The notes under the pieces: model-generated | The model's database searches: none | The model's input: the letters and a program-made list of their open reading frames with translations, nothing else | What the model was told of the DNA's origin: nothing | Assembly: GCA_000004695.1 (NCBI GenBank) | Contig: CM000155.2 | Coordinates: 2,496,001-2,560,000 of the forward strand | Length of the DNA: 64,000 bases | Source: Dictyostelium discoideum | Lineage: Eukaryota | Direction: 5' to 3' | Shown here: one piece after another, positions 12,062 through 13,321 of the stretch | Layout of the letters: the number at the start of each line of letters is the position of its first letter | How positions within the stretch are numbered: the first letter of the stretch is position 1 | Program-made: the position numbers and the translations under genes

Positions 12062-12748
12062 TTAATTGCCAATACATTTAGTACCAGTTAAATTAATTCC
12101 ATTTCTCATTTTAAAGTTTTCCAACCAACCACTACTAGCCTTGAAAGTGTTATTATTTAATTGTTTTGATAAATCGAGAGCAAACTTTTTAATGGTTTCA
12201 CCGCTAACCATTTCACCATTAGCACGAGCTTGATTAATTTTTTCAATTATTAAATTTTCTTGTTCAATTGAGAAGGAGGCTTTTGGACCTTTGTGTAATT
12301 TCTTTAAATTCTTTTTACCAAAACTTCTATATTTATCAATGTTTGAAATCCAACGAGAAATAATACTACGAGAGATATGATATTTCTTTACAACATGATT
12401 CATACCAAACTTATTTTTCTCTTCAAGAATTTCCAACTTTTTATACACCTCATATGATTTTCTTGGTTTCTTACCATTAATAGCGGCAGCACTAACTCTT
12501 TTACTCACTTTACCACTATTTGTAATTTGGTTATTAATATTATTATTATTATTATTATTAAATTCACTACCACTACAAATTGGTGAATTTGGAACTTGCA
12601 TCATTGGGCTACTTGGTTCATCTCTTCTTGATGAACAATCATCACTATCATATTCACTATCATCATCTGAAAAATTATTATTGTTATTATTATTATTGTT
12701 ATTATTATTATTATTATTATAATTATTATTATTATTATAATCAATAAA

Positions 12749-12796
<48 letters not shown>

Positions 12797-13321
12797 AAAA
12801 ATATTATTATTAAAATTATTATTATTTGAGGATGGAACTTTAACTGGTGAAGAAGAAACTATTGGTGAATGAACTGGAGTTGTTTGAGTTGAATAATAAT
12901 AATTTGGAGAGGTACTTGTTGGAGATGATGGTGATGATGGTGTTTTGGTTTTTAAGCTTGCAATTGTATTTATAATGGTTTCATCTGATGTATCTTCAAT
13001 AAGTGATGATTGATCTGAATTATTATAGGATTGAATATACATATTTACATTATTAAAACTACTATTTAAACTATTATTTTTAATTGAAACTCTTGAAATT
13101 TTATTGAAATTATTATGATTATTATTATTATTATTATTAAAATTATTATTATTAAAATTATTAAAATTATTATTATTATTATTATTATTATTATTTGTAT
13201 TGTTATCTGAAATATTTATTATTTGTATTAATGGTGTTGTTGTTGTTGTTGTTGTTGTTGTAGTTGGTGTTGGTAATGTAATTGGTTTTGAAATATTATT
13301 TAAAATATAATGTAATTCCAT
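12062..13321 (-). CDS. Protein with CENP-B/pogo(Tigger)-type N-terminal DNA-binding domains (HTH_psq-like plus CENPB-type HTH) and a long poly-N/poly-T N-terminal region. 419 aa. No transposase (DDE) domain.
   Basis: C-terminal 140 aa: KKPRKSYEVYKKLEILEEKNKFGMNHVVKKYHISRSIISRWISN...GPKASFSIEQENLIIEKINQARANGEMVSGETIKKFALDLSKQ...FKASSGWLENFKMRNGI, the pattern of pogo/CENP-B helix-turn-helix modules. ORF stops at 12062 and the downstream 600 bp has no ORF, so no DDE catalytic domain follows. Confidence 0.6.

Follow-up and report, generated by a model that had tools for sequence, protein, structure and literature searches.

A conserved single-copy dictyostelid gene ending in a CENP-B/pogo-type paired helix-turn-helix module, probably captured from a transposase without its catalytic domain

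Pogo transposases have repeatedly been turned by domestication into proteins related to CENP-B (PMC4231638), and among these CAG (CG12346) from Drosophila is a pogo-derived protein of 225 aa in which the paired helix-turn-helix (HTH) is kept and the DDE domain is missing (PMC4231638). A DDE-less pogo domestication is therefore already known as a kind. For Amoebozoa pogo elements have been reported (PMC7386202), and according to the transcription factor census of dictyostelids from 2019 (Forbes et al. 2019, Table 1 and Table S2; PMC6873476) the CENPB family does not occur in this group. The same census contains nine Psq genes, all of them specific to P. pallidum (PPL_ identifiers) and PPL_00340 not being among them (PMC6873476). 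We also searched the literature for a named Dictyostelium factor of the CENPB or Tc5 type and found no paper on the family reported here. Here we describe such a CENPB-type dictyostelid family, which is missing from the census inventory.

The analysed window, i.e. the whole stretch of 64 kb of Dictyostelium discoideum DNA, has a GC content of 22% and includes an ORF (24283–25716) that is identical to DDB_G0293108 of strain AX4. On chromosome 6 the gene under study has a Tag-type protease/ABC transporter gene on one side and COG4 on the other (Table 1). It is a single-exon ORF running uninterrupted from ATG to TAA on the minus strand, about which the earlier note on this DNA was silent, and the product called in public D. 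discoideum assemblies is identical to the 419-aa ORF and likewise single-exon. As protein searches gave no D. discoideum match although the neighbouring DDB_G0293108 is among the searched proteins, a lack of annotation in this species was considered for the gene, but this was rejected after the exact 419-aa product was found to be called in two large D. discoideum contigs. The protein ends with FKASSGWLENFKMRNGINLTGTKCIGN and the stop codon, and the earlier reading that the ORF stops directly after the HTH pair, with LTGTKCIGN as its last residues, is confirmed, the end sequence being as quoted there. The 13-aa tail of the D. discoideum protein (aa 407–419, 12062–12100, NGINLTGTKCIGN) is unlike the H.LQL-type tails of 6–8 aa in the other species, and its ‘..LTGTK’ is a faint echo of ‘LTLRQGTK’, the sequence found after the module in pogo transposases. 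On the downstream side the neighbour at 10785–11399 (minus strand) encodes a zf-CCHC_3 (zinc-knuckle) protein of 204 aa with its own ATG and a long tail that is both acidic Ser/Asp-rich and basic Arg/Ser-rich. It is followed by the Tag-type fusion gene at 5320–10713 (plus strand), which combines Peptidase_S8 with an ABC transporter, has 1752 aa in the public annotation and is presumably tagA.

Table 1: Features of the HTH gene and its surroundings, and window counterparts of genes found beside its orthologues (positions within the 64 kb window).
Feature	Positions	Strand	Basis
Complete CDS, CENPB-type HTH protein (419 aa + stop)	12062..13321	-	ORF list; public gene call
Conserved N-terminal peptide, aa 1–9	13295..13321	-	Common to D. 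discoideum, P. violaceum, T. lacteum and H. album proteins
Variable low-complexity region, aa 10–282	12476..13294	-	Poly-N/poly-T runs, Ser/Pro-rich stretches
First HTH module, aa 284–337, with ISRSIISRW	12311..12472	-	Alignment to CENP-B domain 1 in 1HLV; AlphaFold helices
Basic flexible linker, aa 338–351, KKNLKKLHKGPKAS	12269..12310	-	Low pLDDT; invariant in orthologues
Second HTH module, aa 352–411 (HTH_Tnp_Tc5), final helix FKASSGWLENFK.R	12089..12268	-	Pfam; model helices; 1HLV fold match
Species-specific C-terminal tail, aa 412–419, TGTKCIGN + stop codon	12062..12088	-	Orthologue comparison
Downstream spacer to zf-CCHC gene	11400..12061	.	14.7% GC; tblastn with pogo transposase
Gene-free region up to COG4	13322..21022	.	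No ORF of at least 100 aa, tRNA, Rfam match or public gene call
Counterpart of P. violaceum COG4 (upstream of the orthologue, same strand)	21038..23711		tblastx
Counterpart of P. violaceum exportin gene	26227..29807		tblastx
Counterpart of H. album Arf-like gene	35042..35866		tblastx
Counterpart of H. album SET gene	39503..41062		tblastx
Counterpart of H. album PALP gene	42423..43578		tblastx

The last ~130 aa of the 419-aa protein are a CENP-B/pogo-type paired HTH, and the presence of this CENPB-type module in the ORF is real and far beyond chance. Pfam identified HTH_Tnp_Tc5 (PF03221) at aa 353–411 with E=3.3e-14 and 53 bits against a cut-off of 22.2, the second HTH being the only one of the two that passes a Pfam threshold, and for the first HTH (aa 295–347) a sub-threshold match to HTH_28 was obtained (17.3 bits, cut-off 25). 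The earlier note had proposed a paired HTH with a CENPB-type ending in the C-terminal ~140 aa and had named three Pfam families for it; of these HTH_Tnp_Tc5 was recovered, and HTH_psq and CENP-B_N gave no Pfam match in the 419-aa protein, as was also the case for BrkDBD. Apart from HTH_Tnp_Tc5 no Pfam domain, including any DDE, scored above threshold in this protein. Using phmmer against the PDB, the best sequence match was the DNA-binding domain of human CENP-B (1HLV, E=1.4e-6), and the alignment covers CENP-B residues 17–130 and with these both HTH modules. We then considered the AlphaFold model of aa 282–419 (mean pLDDT 75.8), which shows seven helices in two bundles separated by a low-confidence basic linker (low pLDDT at model residues 57–66). 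The helices of the first HTH (aa 289–305, 307–314 and 318–326) form a three-helix bundle and those of the second HTH comprise aa 352–367, 374–387 and 397–407. The top PDB match of the model in Foldseek was again CENP-B (1hlv_A, probability 1.00, E=1.8e-3, 131 aligned columns), and the expected fold of two bundles and a linker resembling 1HLV is indeed what the model predicts, the global TM-score of 0.36–0.38 being low, since across the flexible linker the model does not predict how the two bundles are oriented towards each other.

To look for relatives we combined a word-indexed search with a HMMER profile search that ran exhaustively over 1.84 billion representatives; for D. purpureum and Cavenderia these protein searches retrieved no orthologue. 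The protein searches retrieved one protein per dictyostelid species, namely from Polysphondylium violaceum (223 aa), Tieghemostelium lacteum (261 aa), Heterostelium album (PPL_00340, 330 aa) and Synstelium polycarpum (164 aa), and a second word-indexed search with a mixed-alignment seed added only short metagenomic fragments. PF03221 is also present in the orthologues, those of P. violaceum, T. lacteum and H. album are labelled ‘HTH CENPB-type domain-containing protein’ in UniRef, and the genes of these three species are single exons as well. Within the module the five dictyostelid species share 68–85% identity with 84 invariant columns in ~125 aa, including ISRSIISRW, FKASSGWLENFK.R and the basic linker. 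The module is located at the extreme C-terminus in all five species, followed by 6–8 residues in the orthologues and 13 in D. discoideum, and the five proteins end at the very point where pogo transposases go on (‘RH.LTLRQ.TK...’) into a linker and the DDE domain. From the orthologues to the next match the E-values of the HMMER profile search drop from 1e-58 to 1e-32, and as no intermediate matches from other amoebozoans appeared, the family looks confined to Dictyostelia within the searched library. A codon alignment of the module gave a dN/dS of 0.072 for D. discoideum and P. violaceum, and for the other species pairs dS was saturated with dN values of 0.14–0.29. The module is under strong purifying selection.

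The earlier note had stated that a downstream exon encoding a DDE domain or flanking terminal inverted repeats (TIRs) would refute its reading, and neither was detected. As tblastn query we used P0033, a genuine pogo transposase from among the relatives with HTH pair and DDE_1. Only its HTH part (aa 79–214) matches the window, at 12077–12481, and again only the HTH part matches the T. lacteum, P. violaceum and H. album loci, whereas nothing similar to DDE was detected in the 64 kb window or in the 10 kb flanking the three orthologues on either side. By tblastn a single occurrence of the module was obtained in the window. In the 662 bp downstream spacer, which the earlier note had described as ~600 bp free of ORFs, the only stop-free runs are indeed poly-K/poly-F, and no TIRs were found in 9000–17000, where all 1799 inverted pairs are poly-A/poly-T low complexity. 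For the T. lacteum orthologue two independent Logan contigs of ~1 kb (ERR3252995 and ERR3252990) correspond to positions 9933–10954 of the genomic locus. Both share their genomic start, 68 bp upstream of the ATG, and match the genome colinearly up to 168 bp beyond the stop. In appearance they are transcript assemblies, and the mRNA would then be unspliced without a further exon, but the shared start could alternatively be a poly-T assembly break. An incomplete gene model, with the DDE domain encoded in a downstream exon, is practically out of the question: no supporting evidence was found for it, and it is effectively refuted by the tblastn results, by the non-coding spacer leading into an unrelated zf-CCHC gene with its own start and by the common stop point of all five proteins, to which the colinear T. 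lacteum contigs can be added.

Comparing the orthologous loci with the whole window by tblastx revealed a partial linkage that is conserved with rearrangement. P. violaceum has COG4 and the exportin gene in common with the window and H. album the Arf-like, SET and PALP genes (Table 1), and the T. lacteum orthologue has no neighbours in common with it, so that linkage is kept in two of the three species with checkable loci. Since the immediate neighbours differ among the species, an absence of synteny had been considered, but this was rejected when the whole-window comparison recovered the rearranged linkage. H. album belongs to group 2 and D. discoideum to group 4, and these two are separated by the deepest split within the dictyostelids. 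The linkage shared across this split argues that their common ancestor already had the gene at this locus. The window contains three paralogous copies of the PALP-type (pyridoxal-phosphate enzyme) gene at 37835–39074, 42423–43578 and 48573–49771, all of which match the single PALP gene beside the H. album orthologue, and this suggests a local duplication in D. discoideum.

With these data it is possible to judge whether the ORF might simply be the decaying remnant or an internally deleted copy of a recent pogo insertion. Pogo elements often lose the DDE domain through internal deletions (PMC4231638), but orthologues in five species from taxon groups 2, 3 and 4, a dN/dS of 0.07, the conserved stop position, N-terminal motif and neighbour linkage as well as the lack of TIRs and the single copy in the window effectively refute such an origin, which we regard as very improbable. 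Conservation in other dictyostelids at a syntenic position, which the earlier note had named as support for domestication over recent insertion, was observed for four further species with short proteins that carry the same module and end at the same point, the syntenic part applying to P. violaceum and H. album.

Outside the Dictyostelia the nearest matches (P0006–P0025) are proteins of 600–2715 aa with 4–16 tandem CENPB-type HTH pairs and no DDE, P0006 (ENA) consisting of four near-identical repeats of ~140 aa, and the remaining outside matches are short fragments and pogo transposases. DDE_1 is carried by 16 of the 36 nearest outside relatives with at least 300 aa. A descent of the host gene from a transposase appears probable from the general view of this domain family together with the mix of relatives. 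One might also read the paired HTH as an ancient domain of cellular, non-transposon origin that only shares a common HTH ancestor with the pogo transposases, as the other 20 of these 36 longer relatives are without DDE_1 and many matches are short or multi-copy HTH arrays. Such an ancestry appears unlikely to us, as the module matches a Pfam family defined by transposases, the alignable relatives with a catalytic domain all have DDE_1, placed canonically behind the HTH pair, and the apparent confinement to Dictyostelia fits a lineage-specific capture. We therefore favour, with good though not full confidence, a host gene that consists of a bipartite pogo-superfamily DNA-binding module without catalytic domain, acquired before the sampled Dictyostelia radiated, kept as a single copy under strong purifying selection and predicted to encode a DNA-binding regulator. 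The proposal of an exapted (domesticated) transposase DNA-binding domain, originally made from the letters of the D. discoideum sequence, thus gained support from the missing DDE domain and TIRs, the orthologues, their selection and the linkage.

In the N-terminal part of the protein the low complexity with poly-N/poly-T runs noted earlier for ~270 aa is reflected by 34% Asn and 14% Ser over the first 283 aa, and 11 S/T-P dipeptides are found in the variable region (aa 10–282), which is presumed to be an effector or regulatory region. The N-terminal regions of the orthologues are 33–283 aa long and cannot be aligned beyond the first 8–9 residues. This only alignable part is the peptide M-[EH]-[LI]-x-x-[IL]-L-N-[PN] (aa 1–9), which is conserved in four of the five proteins and absent from the Synstelium model, which may be 5'-truncated. 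Its spacing (hydrophobic-x-hydrophobic-x-x-I-L) recalls, as we assume, an engrailed-homology-1 (eh1)-type co-repressor motif.

Upstream of the gene 7.7 kb with 15.9% GC separate it from COG4. No ORF of at least 100 aa and no public gene call is present in this region, an Rfam scan of 11000–21500 and a tRNA scan of the whole window gave nothing, and by inference the region may be the regulatory region of the HTH gene. Boxes of the CACACCCAC type (at most one mismatch, both strands) occur 18 times in the window compared with 1.95 expected for the whole window, and 13 of the 18 are clustered at 15554–20239. These boxes resemble what we take to be the G-box/CA-rich elements to which the developmental factor GBF binds in promoters of Dictyostelium. 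For the compact D. discoideum genome 7.7 kb is very long as an intergenic region, and gene-poor sequence upstream of the orthologue extends over ~7 kb in H. album, ~3 kb in P. violaceum and only 0.6 kb in T. lacteum. The D. discoideum region also contains an imperfect inverted repeat with a GT-rich arm GGTGTGGGTGAGTGGGTGTGTGGGG (16740–16765) and a CA-rich arm CACACACACCCACACACCCACCACGG (17228–17255) ~470 nt apart, between which an interrupted (CAA)n/(AAC)n tract (16820–16990) and the only patch of the gap with more than 25% GC are located. A blastn comparison of the upstream regions of the four species for conserved non-coding sequence resulted in short low-complexity matches only.

From the domain content, the most likely function of the protein would be that of a sequence-specific DNA-binding regulator. 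The two three-helix HTH bundles, joined by the basic flexible linker, would each place a recognition helix into DNA, with ISRSIISRW and FKASSGWLENFK.R as the putative recognition helices and a mode of binding as that of CENP-B on the CENP-B box. The composite target site might then comprise ~15–17 bp and be bound sequence-specifically, comparable to the 17-bp CENP-B box, and as both recognition helices are invariant, the target motif is expected to be conserved across Dictyostelia. The fast-evolving N-terminal region, with its conserved first 8–9 residues and in some species Ser/Pro-rich tracts, could serve for effector or partner recruitment, and the protein would regulate transcription or chromatin instead of working as a transposase.

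It could also be that the protein is a CENP-B/Abp1-like chromatin factor that organises or silences repeats such as transposon ends or the DIRS-1-rich centromeres, similar to the fission-yeast homologues at retrotransposon LTRs. CENP-B itself is the best relative with a solved structure, and pogo-derived DNA-binding domains have repeatedly been recruited into CENP-B-related proteins (PMC4231638; PMC5579357), but the protein ends 13 residues past the module without DDE-derived central or C-terminal dimerisation domain and no link between the gene and repeats exists within the window, which makes such a role rather doubtful. At its most far-reaching, the regulator function would mean a Dictyostelia-wide sequence-specific transcription regulator absent from the published census, for which the pogo DNA-binding module alone was captured before the radiation and whose target motif is conserved throughout the group. 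Being located downstream of a putative 7.7 kb regulatory region rich in CA/GT boxes, it might be developmentally controlled and regulate the multicellular programme, perhaps by recruiting a co-repressor via M-E-L-x-x-I-L-N. We put this full scenario forward as speculation, with low confidence.

With its probable capture from a pogo transposase the family represents an independent amoebozoan addition to the pogo DNA-binding domains that were turned into host proteins, and a clean example in which the DNA-binding domain alone was kept and the architecture is frozen across the sampled Dictyostelia. For a model organism it also adds a candidate regulator that had not been catalogued and slightly corrects the transcription-factor inventory, which is of modest but real value. 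As a single-copy gene with a small, well-defined DNA-binding domain it should be easy to knock out and to profile. Altogether it is a tidy and ancient case that would not surprise a specialist.

Like Abp1, Cbh1 and Cbh2 of fission yeast and like JRK, TIGD, POGK and POGZ of vertebrates it would be a pogo-derived host gene that uses the retained DNA-binding domain (PMC4231638; PMC7386202). All of those proteins, however, keep a DDE-derived domain, whether active or not, together with an N-terminal DNA-binding domain. The autonomous pogo/Tigger/Fot transposases such as P0033 have the same HTH pair with 34–37% identity over ~125–140 aa, but they continue after ‘RH.LTLRQ.TK’ into DDE_1, possess TIRs and occur in multiple copies, whereas the dictyostelid gene has neither DDE_1 nor TIRs and is found in one copy in the 64 kb window. 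With human CENP-B (1HLV) it shares the two three-helix HTH bundles with linker and the FxAS.GWL..F helix at an identity of only about 25–27%, and CENP-B further possesses acidic regions as well as the DDE-derived central and C-terminal dimerisation domains, and its binding site is the CENP-B box of the centromere. An analogy, of function only, may exist to regulators of the Brinker/Pipsqueak type, in which a small transposase-like HTH is combined with a disordered region with short partner-recruiting motifs, although these use one or several HTHs of the psq/Brk type and not a second HTH of the CENPB/Tc5 type. A parallel in kind is CAG, a short domesticated pogo transposase with paired HTH, without DDE and under purifying selection among related species. 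In CAG, however, the DNA-binding domain is N-terminal and the DDE domain was lost by internal deletion with the C-terminal part of the transposase (PCNA-binding, self-association) being retained, whereas in the dictyostelid protein the module is located at the extreme C-terminus with nothing after it and a novel low-complexity region ahead of it. CAG and the dictyostelid gene belong to different eukaryotic supergroups, and the capture in Amoebozoa is an event independent of that in Drosophila.
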